Shown in pieces: positions 11,842 to 61,914 of a DNA stretch of 64,000 nucleotides. Under the pieces are notes generated by a model. It worked only from the letters and a program-made list of their open reading frames with translations, ran no database searches and had not been told where the DNA came from. Both the position numbers and the translations under genes were made by a program. Where the stretch lies: NCBI GenBank assembly GCA_024277355.1, contig JAJRVL010000005.1:24428-88427 (forward strand), written 5' to 3'. This DNA is from an archaeon. GTDB lineage: Archaea > Iainarchaeota > Iainarchaeia > Iainarchaeales > 1-14-0-10-31-34. Each line of letters starts with the position of its first letter. The stretch's first letter is position 1.

Positions 11842-12780
11842 ATGTCTAAACCTAAAAGATCTGGCTTAAAAAGAAACAGATTTGTGCATCAAAAATTTCA
11901 TGGAAAACTTAATGTTTCTAGTTCTTCAAATCTTATTCCTTATTATTCTGCTGTTAAAGTTGTAACAATTAATGGCAAAAAATATGTTAAAAAAACTCAT
12001 TCAGGTTTTTTTTTGCAGCCTGATGTAAATCAGTCTAAACATGCATTAAATCCTGAACTTGCAAGAAGTTTAACAGCAGGAGAATCAATTGTTTTAAGAG
12101 GAGTTTCAAGAATTTATAACAGGCTTAAAAGAAAAGGAGTTTTCAGAAAAAAAGAAAAAAAAATTTATTTACTTAATTTTTCCAAACTTTTTAGGGTTAA
12201 TTTAAGCAAAACAAAGCCTTCAAAAAATTTTATTTTATCAGAATATATAAATGCTCCTGATGCAGGGCGTCTTTATTCTTTTGTGAAATTTGGAAAAATA
12301 TTAGGTGCTTCTCCTAAAGAAGAAAAAAAATGCATGCAATTCATAAAAAAACAGAGGTTAATTAAGGTTTTAGAAAATAAAAAATCAAGAGAATCTTTTG
12401 CTTCTAAACTTTATTCGGCTGTTGAGCAGGCTGCAAGGGATTTAGCTGTTGCAGAAAAAGAATTTAAAAAAAATGCAGCAAAAAAAGGTTTAAATGAAAA
12501 TGTTTTGTTTGATGTGTCTGAAAGAAAAGATAATGTTTTGTTTAGAGTTCCTGAAACAGATTTTAATGAAATTAAACGAGACAATTTTGTTGTTAATTCT
12601 TTTGAAAGGGGAGTTTTTAATCTTACTTTAATTGATCTTCTTTATCCTTCAAGTGATAAAAAATTTCATCCTTCAATTACAAGAACAAAAAAACGAAACA
12701 AGCTTAAGCAGTGGGAAAACAAAAATCCTAAAGAATTTTATAGTTCTGAAGGCCATCCAAAAAGAAGAAAGAAAAAATAA
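11842..12780 (+). CDS. Basic hypothetical protein, paralog A of a two-member family (see 43498..44235)
   Basis: 312 aa, K/R-rich, with no recognisable domain. Three collinear blocks are shared with the ORF at 43498..44235. It lies antisense to the surrounding operons. Confidence 0.5.
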   Translation: MSKPKRSGLKRNRFVHQKFHGKLNVSSSSNLIPYYSAVKVVTINGKKYVKKTHSGFFLQPDVNQSKHALNPELARSLTAGESIVLRGVSRIYNRLKRKGVFRKKEKKIYLLNFSKLFRVNLSKTKPSKNFILSEYINAPDAGRLYSFVKFGKILGASPKEEKKCMQFIKKQRLIKVLENKKSRESFASKLYSAVEQAARDLAVAEKEFKKNAAKKGLNENVLFDVSERKDNVLFRVPETDFNEIKRDNFVVNSFERGVFNLTLIDLLYPSSDKKFHPSITRTKKRNKLKQWENKNPKEFYSSEGHPKRRKKK

Positions 12781-12781
12781 T

Positions 12782-13795
12782 TCACTTATGTGTAAACCAT
12801 AAAACAACTTTTTTTTCTTGTATTTCATCTATTCTTGCATAACCAAAATTTTCTAGTTGAACAGTGTTTCCTTCTTTTTCATCTAAGATTTCTTTGTTTA
12901 TTATGCCGTGTTTTTTTGTTCCGTCATCTAAAACTATTTCTGCTGTAATTTCTTTTAGTATCCATTGAATTAAAGGTTTGTTTTCTAGTTTTTGTATTCC
13001 AGTGAATTCTCCAAAAACCTGTGTTTGATTTTTATTGATTACACGAAAATTTAATGCATGTTTTAATCTAACAATTTTTCCTTCATTCATTTTTTCTGAA
13101 TCTTTTTGTGAAATCAAAAAATTTTGGCTTCCTTCTTTTAATTTATAAACTCTTAATTGATCAGGGAAATCCGGATGAAGTGGTTTTTCTATTTCTAATT
13201 CAGGAACAAAATTTACATCTAATCTGATTGGATGTTCAATAAAATAATATCTGTCTGATTTGCTGTCAATAAAATGTTTATTTAAATCAACCATTTTATT
13301 AAAGTCAATTGTTACATCAGAACTTTTTGTTCCAATTTCTTTGATTATTTCTTTTATTGTTTTAGGAGAAAAACCTCTTCTTCTTAAAGCTTTAATAGTT
13401 CCTAATCTTGGGTCATCCCATCCTGAATAAATTCCTTTTTCTATTCCTTCTTTTATTTTTGAAGTGCTTAAAACCATTTCAGCTAATTTAATTCTGCCTG
13501 TATGTAATGTGTGAGGATAATTCCACCCAAAATATTCATATAAAAATTTTTGTTTTTCTGCATTTTGTGCATGTTCTTGTCCTCTTATAATTAAAGTTAC
13601 TTTCATTTCATGATCATCTATTGCTGAAGCAAAATTATATGAAGGCCATACCTTATATTTTTGATTAACTCTTGGGTGTTCTGGTTCATCAACTATTTTT
13701 GCAGCCCACCAGTCTCTTAAAGAAGGATCTTTTGCATTTAAATCAGTTTTAATTCTTAATACAGCCTGTCCTTCTTTTAATTCATTTGAAAGCAT
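12782..13795 (-). CDS. gltX: Glutamyl-tRNA synthetase, C-terminal segment (same frame as the N-terminal segment, separated by TAA plus 12 sense codons)
   Basis: EGQAVLRIKTDL...RDWWAAKIV...YNFASAIDDH matches the GluRS/GlnRS core. The segment continues through to the anticodon-binding domain. Confidence 0.85.
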   Translation of the reverse strand: MLSNELKEGQAVLRIKTDLNAKDPSLRDWWAAKIVDEPEHPRVNQKYKVWPSYNFASAIDDHEMKVTLIIRGQEHAQNAEKQKFLYEYFGWNYPHTLHTGRIKLAEMVLSTSKIKEGIEKGIYSGWDDPRLGTIKALRRRGFSPKTIKEIIKEIGTKSSDVTIDFNKMVDLNKHFIDSKSDRYYFIEHPIRLDVNFVPELEIEKPLHPDFPDQLRVYKLKEGSQNFLISQKDSEKMNEGKIVRLKHALNFRVINKNQTQVFGEFTGIQKLENKPLIQWILKEITAEIVLDDGTKKHGIINKEILDEKEGNTVQLENFGYARIDEIQEKKVVLWFTHK

Positions 13796-13831
13796 TTTTT
13801 CAAATTCTTTTAATTGTTCGTCAGGTTTTTT

Positions 13832-14473
13832 TTATCTGCATTCGCATCCTTTGTTTTCATCAATTAATTGTTTCCATTTTTCTTTTTCGCATGAACAGAC
13901 ATACGCTTTTCCTATTGAAATAACTTTTTTCATAAAAGAATAATATATTTCCATTCTGTCTGAAGCAAAAAAAGTTTCATCTGCTTTTACTCCAAGCCAG
14001 TTCATGTCTTCTTTAAATATTTGTTCTGCATTTTTAATTGGTTTTTTTGTTTTAGGATCAGTATCATCAAATCTTAAAATAAATTTTCCATTATATTTTT
14101 TTGCGTATTCAAATGAATTAAGCAAAGCCCTTGCATTGCCTAAATGAAAAGGTCCATTAGGATTTGGGGCATAACGCGTTACTACTTGTTCTTTTTCTGC
14201 CCAGTCTAACTGCATTTCTTCTTTTTGTTTTCTTTCAGGCAGTTCATTAAAATCCATTGAATTAAATTTTTCTTCTAATTCTTTTTTATCCATTGAATTA
14301 ACTGATTCAACTGTTTTGGTTATTTCTTTTATTTCTTTGCTTAAGTTTTTTGCCAGTTCTTTGTCTATTGCCATTAGTTTTGAAATTACTGCTTTTAATT
14401 CTGCTTTTCCTGAATGTTCAACTGCATTTTTTACAGCATATTTAAAAGTTAATTCATTTAATTTTTGTTTCAT
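13832..14473 (-). CDS. gltX: Glutamyl-tRNA synthetase, N-terminal catalytic segment (ends at in-frame TAA)
   Basis: RYAPNPNGPFHLGNAR carries the class I HIGH motif, and AYVCSC...C.CR is the Zn-binding pattern of archaeal GluRS. Confidence 0.85.
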   Translation of the reverse strand: MKQKLNELTFKYAVKNAVEHSGKAELKAVISKLMAIDKELAKNLSKEIKEITKTVESVNSMDKKELEEKFNSMDFNELPERKQKEEMQLDWAEKEQVVTRYAPNPNGPFHLGNARALLNSFEYAKKYNGKFILRFDDTDPKTKKPIKNAEQIFKEDMNWLGVKADETFFASDRMEIYYSFMKKVISIGKAYVCSCEKEKWKQLIDENKGCECR

Positions 14474-14517
14474 AAGTTATCTTTCCTAATGAAATTTCAA
14501 TGAAAATTAGTTTAATT

Positions 14518-15189
14518 TTATTGTTTTGTATTAAAATGGTTTAATACTGCTTTTGCAAGGCTTTTGTTCTGTAATATAGCAAAATGATAAAATGGTCGTT
14601 GTTTTTGGAAGTTGTCTAAAACTAAAATTACTTTTTTTTCATCTATTACAAAAGTATTGTCTATTTCTTTTTTTTCTGAATAATTAACTTTAATTTTTTT
14701 TTCTATTGCTTTATTTAATGCTTCTTTTAAAAAACTTCTTTTGCTTGTTTCAGTAAAAACATTAATTGATTTTTTTGCTTTAAGTATTTCCTGTCCTAAA
14801 ACTCTGTCAAAATCATTTAATTCTCTGACTTTAAAGACATTTTCTTTTTCTTCTTGTTCTTCAGAAAAAAGGTTTTCTTTTAATTTCAATGCATTTTCTT
14901 CTATTTTAGTTAATTCTTTTCTTTTTTCTTTAATTAATTTTTCTATTATTTTACTTGATTCAATTGCCTGAAATTTTTTTGGTCTTCCATGTAATGCAAT
15001 AACTAATTGTTTTTCTTCTAATTTTTCTAATACATCATAAACTCTTGTTTTTGGAATTCCTGTGTTTCTGCTGATTTCAGGAGCCTGCAATAAACCTTTT
15101 TTTATTAAAGAAAAAATTGCTTTTGATTCGTATTCAGTTAAGCCAAAAGAAGTAAAATGATTAATTGTTTCTTCGTCCATTTTTCTCAA
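14518..15189 (-). CDS. TrmB-family HTH transcriptional regulator
   Basis: N-terminal FGLTEYESKAIFSLIKKG...PKTRVYDVLEKLEEKQLV is a winged HTH of the TrmB type. Confidence 0.7.
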   Translation of the reverse strand: MRKMDEETINHFTSFGLTEYESKAIFSLIKKGLLQAPEISRNTGIPKTRVYDVLEKLEEKQLVIALHGRPKKFQAIESSKIIEKLIKEKRKELTKIEENALKLKENLFSEEQEEKENVFKVRELNDFDRVLGQEILKAKKSINVFTETSKRSFLKEALNKAIEKKIKVNYSEKKEIDNTFVIDEKKVILVLDNFQKQRPFYHFAILQNKSLAKAVLNHFNTKQ

Positions 15190-17090: not shown

Positions 17091-17117
17091 GTTAATAAAT
17101 AAAGGAAAAAGTTGTTT

Positions 17118-37056: not shown

Positions 37057-39624
37057 CTATTGCTTTTTCACAAGCATTACTACTATTATAATTATTATTG
37101 CAAGCAATCCAATTGTTACTGCTGCATTTTGTCCTAATGAAATTAACGCTGTTGCTGCTCCTATTTCTTTTGTTTCTGATTTAGTGTTAATTTCTTTGCC
37201 ATTATCAAGAACAAATGAAACAGGAATTTCTTTTTCTGTTCCATTTGTTTTTAATTTAAAGAATACTTCTTTTGTTTCTCCTGCTTTAACTTCCACTTTA
37301 GTGTTTCCTTCTAGTGTCCATTCTTCTGGAATTTCAACAATCAAATTTCCATTGATTCCTTCTGCTGTTTCATTTTCAATTGTTATTTTTAATTCTGTTT
37401 CATTAAATACTTTTTTTGTTGTTTCAGCGGAAATTTTTATTTCTTTTTCTTCAACAATTAATTCTATTGCTTTTTCAATTCTTTTTCCTGCTGATTCAAC
37501 TACAAGAACTGCATTATATTTTCCTGAATTTTCTGCTTTAATTTCAATGCTTATTGTTCTATTTGAATTAGCCGGAATTACTATGCTTTTTTCATTTGCT
37601 TTTAATAAACCTAAATCTTCCATAAAAACTCTGAATTCTTTTGATGAAGAAGAATTATTAATTAAAGTAAAAGAAATGCTGTCATCTAAAGAAACTATTT
37701 TTTTTGAAGGGAAATCAGTTACTTCAAAAGCCTGTTCTGAAGAAATTATTTTTGTGGTCTTTGACTGAACATTACATTCTGTTAATGAAACATCATAAAC
37801 CAGATAATTTTCTTTCCCTTCTAATAATTCAACTTCAATTGTTTTTGTAAAAGAATAATTTTTTGGAATGTTAATTGAATAAGGGCTTACACTTAAATTT
37901 GTTCCGTTAATTTTTATTGTTCCTGTTTTGCTTAAAGGATTGTTTATTTTTAATGTAATTTTTTCTTTTCCTAAAACACTTTTAATGCTAGGGACTTCCA
38001 AAGAAAAATCTGAACAATTGTCTGTTGTTTCCTGTTCTTCTTCATCTTCATTTCCTGTGTTATTGTTATAGTAATCTGAATTATTTACTTTTAAGTTAAA
38101 ACTTTTTCTTGTATCTGAAAAAGAACAAGTTTCTCCATTTTCAAATTTTCCTTTTACTTTAAAATAAGCAGTTGAAGTTTTATCTGAACTTACATTATCT
38201 GTTTTTACACTAAAAGAAACATTTTTTTCAGAGTTGTTATTTATATAAGAAGGAAAATCAATGTTTCTGAATTCTGCAAAAGAAGTAAATTCATCAAAGT
38301 CTATTCCTTCAATGTAAAATCTTTCATTTGAATTGTTTTCGACTGAAAAAGAAGCTGAAAAATAATCGTTTTCATTTAAATTTAAATTTTTTGTATTTAA
38401 GTAAATGTCATTGCATTCTCCTTCATTAAAATAAGAATTTTCTACTGTAATGTTTACTGTTTCTTCTCTTATTTCTGAATAAGAACAGTAATTTCCGCCG
38501 GAATAATGCCCTGAAATTCTAATGTAAATTTTTCCTGTTTCATTAAATGAAACTGAATTACTGTTTATTTTGTAGTCAAATTCTCTTGAAGAGTTTTTTG
38601 GAATTAAGCTTGGATTATAACTTTCTGTTGCATTAAAATAAGAACTATTATCTAATACATCAAAATCATCAATATAAAAAGCTGAATCAGAATAATTTCT
38701 CACAGTAAAAGAAAAAGTTTCTGAGTCATTTTCCTGTATTCTTTCATTTGAAGCACTAATACTTATGTTTCCGCATGAATTATCAAATGAGTTATCTGAA
38801 ACTCTTACAATAAAATCTTTTTTTATGTCTGAATAAGAACAGGTTTTTCCTGAAGCAAATTCTCCTTTAATTTTTAAAGTTGCAGTTCCGGTTCTATCTG
38901 AATTAACTTCAGAACTATTAACTTTCAGTCTTACTTGTCCTAAACCATCTGAAGCAATAGATGAATCATTTGAATTAGTAAAAACTCCAAAAAATGATTC
39001 ATATTCAACTGGTGAAACTCCTTTAATGTAAAATCTTTCATTTGAATTATTTTTTATATTAAAAGTAACAAATTCTGTTTCATTTTCATTCATTGCAACT
39101 GAATTAGAAAAAATTTCTATATCGTCGCAATAAGAATCAAAACCTGAATTAACTAAATCTACAAAAGCAATATTAGAGCCTGAATTATAATAATCAGTTG
39201 AATTTTCTGCATAAACAATTACTTTATATTTTGAATAATAATCATCAATAAAAAATGCGTCATACCAGTAAACTGTCTTGTAATTAAGATAATTTAATGA
39301 AATATTTCTTGTATTAGTTGTCTTTAAATAAACCCAGCCGTTATTGTAGCCGTAAATTTCAGCATAAGCTTGAATCCAGTCGTTGTAATAATAGTCGCCG
39401 TAATAATTATAATAATCCAAAAAAAGTTCTGCTCTTATGTCAACTGCATCGTTGTCGTTTACATTAATTGAATTACTCCAATAAGAATCATAATCGCTTC
39501 TTAATTCAACTGAAGAAACTTCAACAAAAAAAGGATGCGAAGTATCAGTAAACACAGCTGAATTCACATTAGATAAAATAAAAATTAAAAGCATTATTAT
39601 AGACAAAAACTTTCTCATAAACAA
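37057..39624 (-). CDS. Large secreted/cell-surface protein with N-terminal signal peptide, >=3 tandem ~110-aa repeats, many N-x-S/T sequons and a C-terminal TM anchor (S-layer/adhesin candidate)
   Basis: N-terminal MFMRKFLSIIMLLIFILSNVNSA. Repeats are marked by F..NNSNERFYI.G and GK.CS(Y/F)S(D/E)I motifs. The protein is rich in N, S, Y and D. The C-terminus is a hydrophobic helix followed by KKQ. Confidence 0.7.
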   Translation of the reverse strand: MFMRKFLSIIMLLIFILSNVNSAVFTDTSHPFFVEVSSVELRSDYDSYWSNSINVNDNDAVDIRAELFLDYYNYYGDYYYNDWIQAYAEIYGYNNGWVYLKTTNTRNISLNYLNYKTVYWYDAFFIDDYYSKYKVIVYAENSTDYYNSGSNIAFVDLVNSGFDSYCDDIEIFSNSVAMNENETEFVTFNIKNNSNERFYIKGVSPVEYESFFGVFTNSNDSSIASDGLGQVRLKVNSSEVNSDRTGTATLKIKGEFASGKTCSYSDIKKDFIVRVSDNSFDNSCGNISISASNERIQENDSETFSFTVRNYSDSAFYIDDFDVLDNSSYFNATESYNPSLIPKNSSREFDYKINSNSVSFNETGKIYIRISGHYSGGNYCSYSEIREETVNITVENSYFNEGECNDIYLNTKNLNLNENDYFSASFSVENNSNERFYIEGIDFDEFTSFAEFRNIDFPSYINNNSEKNVSFSVKTDNVSSDKTSTAYFKVKGKFENGETCSFSDTRKSFNLKVNNSDYYNNNTGNEDEEEQETTDNCSDFSLEVPSIKSVLGKEKITLKINNPLSKTGTIKINGTNLSVSPYSINIPKNYSFTKTIEVELLEGKENYLVYDVSLTECNVQSKTTKIISSEQAFEVTDFPSKKIVSLDDSISFTLINNSSSSKEFRVFMEDLGLLKANEKSIVIPANSNRTISIEIKAENSGKYNAVLVVESAGKRIEKAIELIVEEKEIKISAETTKKVFNETELKITIENETAEGINGNLIVEIPEEWTLEGNTKVEVKAGETKEVFFKLKTNGTEKEIPVSFVLDNGKEINTKSETKEIGAATALISLGQNAAVTIGLLAIIIIIVVMLVKKQ

Positions 39625-41594: not shown

Positions 41595-41643
41595 AATAAA
41601 AGAAAGGAAACCAGCTTTTATTAAAGGTTTTTAAAATTAGAAA

Positions 41644-55878: not shown

Positions 55879-56535
55879 ATGAATACTTTTCCTGAAAAAG
55901 ATTTTTATCTTTTGCTTATTATTGCAAAAAAATCGGAATTAAATAATTCAATTAAAGCTTCAACTTCAGAACTTGCATTAGACTTGAATATTTCTCAACA
56001 GTCTGTTTCAAGAAAACTTTCTTTTTTGGCTGAAAAAGAATTAATTGAAAGAAAAGTTTTAGCTTCAGGAAATATTATTTCTTTAACTGAAAAAGGAAAA
56101 AATTTTTTACTTAAAAGAAAGAATGAATTAGACAAAATTTTTTCTTCAAAAAAAAACAATAAGCTTTCAGGCAAAGTAAAATCAGGATTAGGAGAAGGAA
56201 AATATTACATTAATCTTCCAGGATATCAAAATCAATTCAAAAAAAAATTAGGAAACAGGGTTTTTCCCGGAACATTAAATATTAAAATAAATGAATTTGA
56301 ATTAAATGATTTTCTTTCAGAGAAAAAAAAGATTTCAATTAAAGGTTTTTCTGATAAACAAAGAAGTTTTGGTCCGGCTTTTGTTTTCAAAGTAAAATTA
56401 AACGGCAGAATTGATGCTGCTGTAATAATTCCTGAAAGAACTAATCATCCTGAAAATATTCTTGAATTAATTTCTTCTTTTAATTTAAGGAAAAAATTAA
56501 AATTAAAAGACAATGCTTTAGTTTTTGTTTCTTAG
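55879..56535 (+). CDS. ribK: HTH domain fused to archaeal CTP-dependent riboflavin kinase
   Basis: N-terminal winged-HTH (LALDLNISQQSVSRKLSFL). C-terminal GLGEGKYYINLPGYQNQF...FPGTLNIKI matches MJ0056-type riboflavin kinase motifs. Confidence 0.75.
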   Translation: MNTFPEKDFYLLLIIAKKSELNNSIKASTSELALDLNISQQSVSRKLSFLAEKELIERKVLASGNIISLTEKGKNFLLKRKNELDKIFSSKKNNKLSGKVKSGLGEGKYYINLPGYQNQFKKKLGNRVFPGTLNIKINEFELNDFLSEKKKISIKGFSDKQRSFGPAFVFKVKLNGRIDAAVIIPERTNHPENILELISSFNLRKKLKLKDNALVFVS

Positions 56536-57026
56536 TTTTTTTTGAATGACTTTTTCATTTTGTTCAAAAAAGATTCTTTTTTCTTTTTTTCATTTTTTCT
56601 TCCTGTAAACTGAATTCTTCCTAATTCTTTTTCTGTTTCTTCAACTAATTTATTTACTTTTTCTGTTAATTTATCTTTTTTTAGTTCTGCATCTTCATCT
56701 GTTTTAAGCAATCCAATCATTTTTTCAATTGCTTTTTCTTGTTTTGTTTTGAATTCGTTTTTTTCTTGTTTTTGATCAAACTTTTTTGAAAAAGTTTGTT
56801 GGCCAATTGCTTTTTCTTGTTTTGTTTTGAATTCGTTTTTTTCTTGTTTTATTTCAGGTTCTTTATTTTCTGTTTTTTGCTCCTGTATTTCTTTGTCTTG
56901 TTTAACTTTTAATTTGTTTTCTTGTTCTGTTTTTTCTGTTTTTGTTTCTTCTTTTTGAGTTTTCTTTCCTTTAATTAAATCTATCATTTCATTTATTTCT
57001 TCTTCTTGTTTTTTTTCTTCACTCAT
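56532..57026 (-). CDS. K/E/Q-rich low-complexity protein with internal tandem repeat (QEKNEFKTKQEKAI x2)
   Basis: 164 aa, predicted coiled/disordered, with a ~45-nt direct DNA repeat inside the ORF. Confidence 0.4.
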   Translation of the reverse strand: MSEEKKQEEEINEMIDLIKGKKTQKEETKTEKTEQENKLKVKQDKEIQEQKTENKEPEIKQEKNEFKTKQEKAIGQQTFSKKFDQKQEKNEFKTKQEKAIEKMIGLLKTDEDAELKKDKLTEKVNKLVEETEKELGRIQFTGRKNEKKKKESFLNKMKKSFKKN

Positions 57027-57037
57027 TTTTTTCCCTT

Positions 57038-57967
57038 TTATTCAATTTTTAAGTAATTTTTTAATTCCATTTTTTTATTGAAAACAACATGGTATTTTCT
57101 TATTTTAATCATTACTTCTGCTTCATATCCTAACGGAGTTTTTTCAAAATTAAGTATTTGGATTTCTGTTGTTGCTAAACCATTAGTTAACTCTTTTTTC
57201 ATTCTTTGTTTTATATCTTTTTCCAAACGTGGAAATAATTCTTCAGGATTTCTTTTTCTCCAGACAACAAATATGACTCCTGTTGCAACAAGCAGAATAA
57301 ATCCTGCTGCAACAAGCAGGAAAGGAAAATCTGCTGGTTTTTCTTTTCTGAATTCTATTCGAATATAATTTGCATCAATGTTTTTTGTATCATAAAACAG
57401 TATAAACCCGTCTTTAATTGAATATCTTTCAGGATTAATTTCAACAATTTCTCCTCTGACTTTAATCCTTAAATTTTCTTTGCTTATTTCAGGAGAAAAA
57501 TAATCTTTTATTTCCGGTTCAATTATCAAAATAAACTGCTCTTTGTTTACGTCAATTAATGCAAACCCGTCTTTTATTTTGCTTAATTCTTTTATTATTT
57601 CTCTTGAATTGTCAAAACTTAATTTTAGTTTTCCATAATATTCATCTTTTTCCATTGTGCATTGAAATGAATTTTTTACTTCTTTTAAAAAAATTAATTC
57701 TGCTTTTGCAGTGTCTCTTGTGTCTTTGTCTAAGCTGTTAATGTTTGCTTCTAATGATGCTTCAGTTGAAGGAAAAAGTTTCTTTAATTCTTTTTTGCAG
57801 TCTTTAATTTCTTTTCCTTTTTCTGTTAGTTTTCCTTCATAAGTTAATTCAGTTGAAATTATTTCTTCTTTTATTTCAATAGTAGTCGTTTTTTCTGCTG
57901 ACTCAAAATAACTAATGCATCCGCTGAATAAAAGCAGTAAAATTAATACAGGGATTATTTTTTTCAT
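57038..57967 (-). CDS. Lipoprotein-like membrane protein (signal peptide with ...LLFSGC lipobox-like motif, extracellular domain, one TM, cytoplasmic tail)
   Basis: N-terminal MKKIIPVLILLLLFSGC and a TM at LLVAAGFILLVATGVIFVVW. No recognisable domain. Confidence 0.5.
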   Translation of the reverse strand: MKKIIPVLILLLLFSGCISYFESAEKTTTIEIKEEIISTELTYEGKLTEKGKEIKDCKKELKKLFPSTEASLEANINSLDKDTRDTAKAELIFLKEVKNSFQCTMEKDEYYGKLKLSFDNSREIIKELSKIKDGFALIDVNKEQFILIIEPEIKDYFSPEISKENLRIKVRGEIVEINPERYSIKDGFILFYDTKNIDANYIRIEFRKEKPADFPFLLVAAGFILLVATGVIFVVWRKRNPEELFPRLEKDIKQRMKKELTNGLATTEIQILNFEKTPLGYEAEVMIKIRKYHVVFNKKMELKNYLKIE

Positions 57968-60486: not shown

Positions 60487-61914
60487 TTAATTGCTTTGTT
60501 TTAATTCTTTTGGAATCCATAAATCTGTTTTGTAAATTATTATTGTTATTACTGCACCAATTACGGCAGAAAAAAGTAATGAATACCATATTCCTTTTAG
60601 TCCATAAATTTCTTTTAAGAAAAAAGATAAAATAACAATTAAAATCCAGTATCCTGCTGTCATTAACATTGAAAGAAAAGTATTTCCTGCTCCTTGAAAA
60701 CCTGAAGAAATAGTCATTAAAATTCATCTGAAAGGATAAGAAAAAGCAGCAATTGACAAATATACTAATCCAATTGAAATCACTTCTTTATCTGCAGAAA
60801 ATAATTTAAAAAACGGTTCAGGAAACAAAACAAATATTACTGCAACAATTCCCATTAAAAAAGCTGAAATTGCAGTGGAATAAAAAATTGTTTTTTTTGC
60901 TCTTTCAAGTTTTTTTGCGCCAATATTCTGTCCAACCATTGCAATTGTAGCACTAATTAATCCAATTACCGGCAGAATTGCAATTGAATCCAATCTTGTT
61001 CCAATTCCATAAGCTGCAATTGATAATACTCCAAAAACTCCTACAAAACTCATTATAACAGTTAAACCCAAAGAAATAGTTAAATGCCCAATAGAAGCAG
61101 GAGCCCCCAAAAAAATTATTTTTTTCATTATTCTTAAATCAAAAGAGAAATCTTTTGGATTAATTTTAATTAAACCTCTTCCTTTTAAAATATAAAAAAT
61201 ATTTAGTCCTGCACCAACACTTCTGGATAAAACAGTTGCTAATGCAGCCCCAAAAATCCCTAAAGCAGGAAAACCAAACAATCCAAAAATCAGTATTGGA
61301 TCTAAAATAATATTTAACATAACACTTATTGCCATATTAATCATTGGGGTTTTTGAATCTCCTTCAGCCTGCATTATTCCTTGTGAAATAAATCCAATAA
61401 ACAAAAAAATAAATCCAATAAAAATTGTGTTAGAATAAAGCAAAGTTAATTCAAGTATTTCAGGAGTTGCCCCCATAAAAACAAAAATTGGTTTTCCAAA
61501 AATAATTCCTAAAACAGCAATAATTATTCCAATAACTCCAGACAGCATTAAAGAATGCTCTGCAATATTATTAGCTTTAGAATAATTTTTTGCCCCAACT
61601 GCCTGCGCAACTAAAGTAGTTGAACCAACACTTAAACCTGAAGCAAAAGCAATGAAAATAAATACAACAGGAAAAGTTATTGCAACAGCAGCTAAAGCTT
61701 CAGTTCCAAGCATCCCGATAAAAATTGTGTCAATTACATTAAAGGCTGTCTGCAAAAGCATGCCAAGCATTATTGGCAAAGCTAAAAAAATTAATGTTTT
61801 AAAAATGCTTCCTTCAGTTAAATTATTTTTTTTCTTAATAAAAATCAACTCTAAAATAAAAAGTGAAAATATTATGTATAATTTAGGCTTGCCTAAGTAC
61901 TTGCTGAAGAACAA
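60487..61914 (-). CDS. MATE-family efflux transporter interrupted by an in-frame TGA (60724-60726)
   Basis: The 396-aa N-terminal part has 10+ TM helices. The in-frame continuation ILMTISSGFQGAGNTF...WIP supplies the missing last helices and the conserved G.LRGAGDT-like motif. Confidence 0.75.

Follow-up and report, generated by a model that had tools for sequence, protein, structure and literature searches.

Introduction

Genes interrupted by an internal stop codon are an already known, ordinary kind of finding in draft and metagenome-assembled genomes (MAGs). The gene analyzed in this report—gltX, encoding a glutamyl-tRNA synthetase (GluRS), in a 64,000-nucleotide stretch of archaeal DNA (contig JAJRVL010000005.1, positions 24,428 to 88,427; hereafter the window)—is of this kind. 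Its reading frame is divided by a single in-frame TAA, and we lean towards the view that this stop is an artefact or an unfixed, damage-derived variant, as judged from the assembled sequence. This gltX resembles the internal-stop genes of other draft genomes in that one substitution affects a gene of full length, collinear and conserved in every other respect, that its relatives are free of the stop, that no rescue signals accompany it, and that a second example lies nearby. It is unlike them in that gltX is an essential, single-copy aminoacyl-tRNA synthetase gene, and in that the two interrupting stops of the window share both a mutation type and a C-AGA context.

The intact counterpart is the archaeal-type GluRS (PRK04156/TIGR00463; Protein Data Bank entry 3AII). 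The two gltX parts jointly span its profile and have its HIGH motif, LSTSK motif, Zn-knuckle cysteines and anticodon-binding domains, but the frame is broken at residue 214 and each part falls below the cut-off for a whole protein. Two-piece class I synthetases have been engineered by artificially splitting the methionyl- and isoleucyl-tRNA synthetases (MetRS and IleRS) of Escherichia coli. Natural ones exist as well, as in the αβ leucyl-tRNA synthetase (LeuRS) of Aquifex aeolicus (PMC3643597), and split tRNA synthetase genes have been described in Nanoarchaeota and Micrarchaeota (PMC6349945). The gltX break recalls the Aquifex LeuRS, the split alanyl-tRNA synthetase (AlaRS) of Nanoarchaeum equitans and other DPANN split genes in that it falls within the insertion region of a class I catalytic domain and occurs in a DPANN lineage, a setting from which split genes are known. 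However, the Aquifex and DPANN splits are evolved arrangements that cost no residues and provide every piece with a start and expression signals of its own, whereas the gltX pieces are adjacent and in frame, the C-terminal piece has no Shine–Dalgarno (SD) sequence, 13 residues of conserved length would go missing, and the arrangement is found in no relative. Finally, termination–reinitiation coupling (Huber et al. 2019; PMC10666635) likewise involves two co-directional frames of a single transcript, an ATG coming after a stop, but it needs an overlap or a gap of ∼10 nt or less, as against a gap of 36 nt in gltX; in the second interrupted gene of the window, which encodes a MATE efflux transporter, an in-frame ATG lies only 6 nt past the stop.

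Results

A single codon interrupts an otherwise collinear gltX

The gene lies on the minus strand, where it runs in one frame from an ATG at 14473 to a genuine TGA at 12782-12784 (...FTHK-TGA, the same terminus as in its relatives), and the TAA at 13832-13834 is the sole in-frame TAA. The codons GGA TGC GAA TGC AGA lead into this TAA, which is followed by 12 sense codons (beginning AAA AAA CCT GAC and ending GAA TTT GAA AAA) and then by an ATG at 13795-13793, so that the locus comprises the following parts.

13835..14473, minus strand: N-terminal part of gltX (213 codons), with an N-terminal helical extension, the HIGH motif (PFHLGN) and the Zn-knuckle residues Cys193/195/210/212; it ends ...GCECR
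13832..13834, minus strand: the in-frame TAA, at residue 214; the changed base on the plus strand is the A at 13834
13796..13831, minus strand: 12 in-frame sense codons (KKPDEQLKEFEK) covering most of a predicted helix (residues 217-228), absent from both products if translation restarts at Met227
12782..13795, minus strand: C-terminal part of gltX from Met227, with the second half of the catalytic domain, LSTSK (the KMSKS equivalent) and the anticodon-binding domains, without an SD sequence

On the source NCBI contig (108,869 bp), the two parts are annotated as separate proteins. In a profile search, the N-terminal part (213 aa) matched positions 2-218 of NCBIfam PRK04156 (archaeal GluRS) and the part directly after the stop matched positions 221-567, which means that the two are collinear, that the stop replaces a sense position and that this is one gene cut by one codon. 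Pfam gave matches to PF00749 (positions 1-110 and 124-310) and PF03950. The two parts thus bear out a preliminary description of this DNA, which had reported a single in-frame TAA dividing collinear GluRS halves, and its remark that an indel in the A8 run behind the stop could not remove the TAA also holds. By content, the product is an archaeal-type GluRS—a class Ic catalytic domain with HIGH and KMSKS-type motifs and an E/Q-type anticodon-binding domain, in collinear order—and its match to 3AII has an E value of 1.5e-129. As a whole protein in one frame it falls short: neither part (241.6 and 388.7 bits) reaches the cut-off of 516, which their sum (630) would pass.

The stop is private to this contig and most likely replaces a Glu codon

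The nearest full-length GluRS homologs are 75-80% identical, 562-564 aa long and uninterrupted in every case, and come from DPANN archaea labelled “Ca. Diapherotrites” or plain “archaeon”; the N-terminal part is 80% identical to that of the related locus L001. Complete, uninterrupted gltX genes were found at loci L001, L002, L006-L008 and L014, and two genes truncated by contig ends (L009 and L013) are uninterrupted through the column of the stop. Neither the full-length relatives nor the loci examined showed any interruption, so the split is not conserved, and in the best 120 clusters no fragment begins at Met227 except the product of this contig itself.

In the column where the stop falls, which is variable and hydrophilic, 115 homologs have Glu (52), Asp (26), Ser (10), Asn (9), Gly (8), Lys (6), Ala (3) or Thr (1), and eight of the nine closest full-length homologs have Glu, the exception being Thr. 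The preliminary description had placed the stop where Ser is usual. This is right for the solved GluRS of M. thermautotrophicus (3AII), which has Ser in this position, but not for the family, and the alignment to archaeal GluRS that it had proposed as a check does locate the column but returns Glu most often. In the DNA of four relatives, the corresponding codon is GAA in three (L001, L002 and L013) and ACA in one (L014). Because GAA prevails in these relatives and Glu is the commonest residue among the homologs, the ancestral codon is most likely the Glu codon GAA, and GAA to TAA—a single G-to-T change on the coding strand—would be the most economical route. The earlier suggestion of TCA to TAA is incorrect, given the GAA in L001, L002 and L013. 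Stop-generating changes make up 6.9% of all possible single substitutions in gltX, and 275 of its 563 codons are one step away from a stop; in a gene this AT-rich, a stop by a single change is therefore not improbable.

No match from the same species was found among GTDB representatives or JGI metagenomes, where the scans returned only relatives of ≤80% identity, looking up the two halves as exact proteins yielded no retrievable record, and the collections searched contain no independent assembly of the same population. Ten other window proteins were looked up in a collection of 15 billion proteins, and all ten are there from NCBI only and from a single contig; nine are alone in their 90%-identity cluster, while the L24 protein clusters with one Logan sequence. 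The population appears to have been sampled only once.

The interrupted gene is otherwise intact and evolves at a normal rate

Apart from the stop, gltX shows no other damage and no change of rate. It deviates at one of the 97 columns that are ≥95% conserved (L157M), compared with zero to three deviations in intact relatives. Its distance to outgroups (0.641) lies within the range of the relatives (0.603-0.683) and is normal in both halves, and its 39 lineage-specific nucleotide changes, versus 44-60 in relatives, are the fewest of all. A decaying pseudogene does not fit these properties—one lesion only, conserved columns kept, a normal rate in both halves—and gltX, if it is a pseudogene, would be an extremely young one. 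General sequencing noise finds no support either, as gltX has fewer singleton changes than any relative. The surrounding ∼22 kb is collinear with L001, and the neighbouring genes align as single uninterrupted matches of 59-93% identity, a range in which gltX with its 80% is typical; compared with L001, these flanking genes contain no frameshift or stop.

A second gene of the window carries the same type of lesion

Only two genes of the window have in-frame interruptions, gltX and the gene of the MATE transporter; a codon-score screen yielded none beyond them. The second gene comprises the following features.

60487..61839, minus strand: MATE efflux transporter gene, interrupted; relatives of 450-455 aa cover the joined frame completely
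60724..60726, minus strand: in-frame TGA in the MATE gene, directly after C-AGA, in a Gly column

Past the TGA, a hydrophobic MATE-like C terminus continues in the same frame. All 12 close homologs have Gly in the column of the stop, as do 87 of the 114 homologs in total, and the closest DNA (L015) has GGG, which suggests that the TGA arose by a G-to-T change. The start column may be a further lesion: where relatives have ATG, the window has ATT (61837-61839), likewise a G-to-T change, and a TTG lies three codons further upstream (61846-61848). Otherwise, the MATE product deviates at none of 46 conserved columns. No frameshifts were seen in the window, although no systematic frameshift screen was made; full-length profile coverage of the large genes and synteny with L001 in single high-scoring segment pairs argue against any. 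Profiles of RpoA′, RpoA″, RpoB′, RpoB″, EF-1α, EF-2, aIF2γ, aIF5B, SecY and RtcB were all matched end to end. The MATE lesion shifts the question from what might be special about gltX to the source of scattered G-to-T lesions in the assembly or in the lineage.

Mutation type and sequence context of the lesions

Read on the coding strand, all three disabling changes—the gltX stop, the MATE stop and the MATE start—are of the G-to-T type. Of the 658 substitutions that the window lineage itself has acquired relative to L001 and L002, this type accounts for only 24 (3.6%). Three out of three is a misfit to this normal spectrum (∼1e-3, a rough post hoc estimate) and points to a separate process. Measured against L001 and L002 over window positions ∼1900-24400, the window lineage also has more GC-to-AT changes than L001 (262 versus 163), a general drift towards AT that fits its lower GC content over the syntenic stretch (28.9%, versus 30.8% in the relatives).

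Both stops directly follow a conserved Arg and are preceded by C-AGA (GCAGATAAAA and TCAGATGAAT; 13829-13838 and 60721-60730), giving the shared context C-AGA-T[A/G]A-A. Among the codons of minus-strand genes that are prone to nonsense by G to T, only 14 of 2478 (0.56%) have CAGA upstream. A motif-specific miscall of CAGAG as CAGAT, for example at a methylated motif, was considered and rejected: CAGAG[AG]A and CAGAT[AG]A occur in a ratio of 26:28 in the window and 16:17 in relatives, so there is no global effect, and no context of this kind marks the 24 G-to-T changes specific to the lineage. Over the syntenic stretch, AGAT[AG]AA occurs roughly two times as often in the window as in L001 (27 versus 13), although these numbers are small and the GC content of the window is lower. 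The common context may be a coincidence.

Discussion

In the explanation that we favor, the TAA in gltX would be a very recent, unselected and unprogrammed single-base change from GAA (Glu214) to TAA in the otherwise intact, canonical archaeal-type gltX of a DPANN archaeon that has a low GC content and is related to “Ca. Diapherotrites.” Together with the MATE stop, it would bring the scattered G-to-T nonsense changes of the 64-kb window to at least two, and it would have originated in the data rather than in the cell, either as a consensus or base error or as 8-oxoguanine-type damage or a minority variant that became fixed during library preparation or assembly. The working gltX of the organism would then read GAA and yield an ordinary one-piece GluRS. 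We favor such an artefact for three reasons. First, a single unusual type of mutation is scattered over otherwise perfect genes. Second, an essential single-copy gene has been struck, which is expected of random errors and unexpected after selection. Third, neither gltX nor the MATE gene shows relaxed constraint. Of the four options listed in the preliminary description, a nonsense mutation and a base-call error are the ones that our results leave open and favor, while reinitiation and readthrough are disfavored; most likely, the gltX stop marks neither a split gene nor a site of recoding nor a changed code.

Four observations weigh against an origin in the data. The assembly is otherwise clean, with no frameshifts seen although A-runs are numerous, and this speaks against a consensus that is error-prone in general. 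Split informational genes, those of tRNA synthetases among them, are known to be tolerated in DPANN archaea (PMC6349945). A change from G:C to T:A is natural in a genome drifting towards AT, as the counts of GC-to-AT changes given above illustrate. Lastly, random damage leaves the C-AGA context common to both stops unexplained. If the stop is an artefact, it is a quality flag only: the contig would contain scattered gene-breaking G-to-T changes, and inferences from this MAG about gene content or a “missing” aminoacyl-tRNA synthetase would need care. If it is real, it would be a rare snapshot of a reduced DPANN genome that is either beginning to split a gene or losing an essential synthetase, and would bear on the origin of split informational genes in Nanoarchaeota-like archaea.

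Among the alternatives, the one that survives best is a real, recently fixed nonsense mutation, which would make gltX a young pseudogene in a drifting lineage whose survival depends on a second gltX or on a host or partner. We regard this as unlikely. Every cell requires GluRS for Glu-tRNA, and archaea also depend on it for the indirect route to Gln-tRNA; this general need counts against a loss of the gene, as does the fact that the 64-kb window contains no second gltX. In the same vein, DPANN genomes generally retain informational genes (PMC6349945), and the unrelaxed constraint in gltX and MATE means that both genes could only have been inactivated in the extremely recent past. What speaks for a real loss is that the MATE gene possibly has two lesions, in its start codon and by nonsense, as a gene already dead might, that the lineage of the window does drift towards AT, and that the assembly looks free of general sequencing noise.

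A second alternative is a newborn split gene, in which the stop would be real and GluRS would work as two non-covalently associated pieces, residues 1-213 and a C-terminal piece from Met227. The place of the break is a point in its favor: in an AlphaFold model (mean pLDDT, the predicted local distance difference test score, 89.5), the stop falls in a predicted coil (residues 206-216) after the Zn knuckle and before the helix formed by residues 217-228. The Aquifex LeuRS and the split synthetases of Nanoarchaeota and Micrarchaeota provide natural precedents; a literature search for a natural split GluRS returned nothing relevant. Several points count against a newborn split gene. An SD-like match of ≥4 nt to GGAGGTGAT precedes 59 of 87 crude gene calls, the set on which all gene counts in the window are based, but none precedes the ATG at 13795, in agreement with the earlier remark that the downstream AUG has no SD sequence. 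Moreover, no start codon occurs in the 36 nt between the TAA and this ATG, a gap to be compared with published limits: reinitiation is abolished at 22-23 nt in H. volcanii and nearly abolished at 38 nt in E. coli (PMC10666635). The ATG encodes Met227, which is invariant across the family, and is therefore not a newly evolved start. A restart there would drop residues 214-226, 13 columns that are never gapped in 115 homologs and that include Phe224, present in 102 of them. The gap, the lacking SD sequence and the lost residues make reinitiation a disfavored route and, together with a split that no relative shares, they confirm the earlier judgment that this is not a domain-boundary split gene with initiation signals of its own. 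We thus consider a newborn split gene doubtful.

Initiation signals vary within the window. Most genes have GGAGG, GGTGA or GTGAT at −8 to −15, but no SD-like match is found at the starts of gltX itself, Memo, archease and TrmB (14474-14520, 17091-17117, 41595-41643). SD-independent initiation thus seems, from these sequences, to occur on some window genes, and the SD-less internal genes for Memo, archease and TrmB are a point in favor of a split gltX. That both stops are real and tolerated, through a nascent two-piece GluRS (residues 1-213 and 227-563) or through readthrough at C-AGA-TRA-A that rescues gltX and MATE alike, has in our view a slim chance.

Readthrough on its own—a real TAA bypassed by near-cognate decoding or a suppressor tRNA often enough to supply full-length GluRS, and the MATE TGA possibly likewise—is improbable. 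The context common to the two stops and the otherwise perfect conservation of both genes speak in its favor. However, TAA is the main terminator of the window, ending 44 of the 87 calls (TGA ends 38), among them archease and the ribosomal-protein genes S2, L24, L22 and S7, and TAAA is the commonest stop tetranucleotide (26 of 87). AGA also stands directly before the stop at four genuine gene ends. RNA folding around the gltX stop is not significant (z = −1.66; 11 of 200 shuffles fold as well), and no relative has a stop at either position, where Glu, Thr, Lys or Asp (gltX) and Gly (MATE) are found instead. The common terminator context, the lack of significant structure and the absence of the stop from relatives together disfavor readthrough. 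Within the 64-kb window there is no tRNA gene of any kind and no Rfam element. We know of no programmed UAA readthrough in archaea.

The weakest alternatives, a genome-wide reassignment of TAA or TGA to an amino acid or a programmed frameshift at the A-run, can be dismissed: an in-frame TGA in the Gly column of MATE does recall genetic code 25, but TAA and TGA end nearly all calls, at homolog or profile ends, the other adjacent pairs of same-frame open reading frames (ORFs; S2/Memo, L24/S4e, L22/S3, archease/RtcB and S7/EF-2) are distinct genes parted by a genuine TAA, and a single frameshift at the A8 run could not rejoin gltX parts that are already in frame, the −1 frame after AGA meeting a TGA within 5 codons and the +1 frame a TAA within 8.

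Other features of the window

The window is gene dense and has a GC content of 28.9%, with 73 of the 87 crude gene calls on the minus strand. The 64 kb in which no tRNA gene or Rfam family was detected are packed with a ribosomal-protein cluster and genes for RNA polymerase subunits, EF-1α, EF-2, aIF2γ, aIF5B and RtcB/archease. Among these housekeeping genes, three minus-strand ORFs have no Pfam match at E ≤ 0.01: one of 853 aa (37057-39618), for which there is also no NCBIfam match at E ≤ 1e-10, one of 309 aa (57038-57967) and one of 164 aa (56532-57026).

Immediately downstream of gltX lies one further ORF.

11842-12780, plus strand: g018, a Lys-rich ORF of 312 aa with no Pfam family, convergent, between gltX and the L7Ae gene

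This ORF is absent from L001 and L002, but the corresponding slot contains a single homolog in L014 and two tandem homologs in L013, at 34-37% identity. Their presence in these loci rules out a fresh insertion of g018 that disturbed gltX. The genes flanking the slot are ∼80% identical, and g018 is probably a fast-evolving, lineage-restricted gene in a variable slot.

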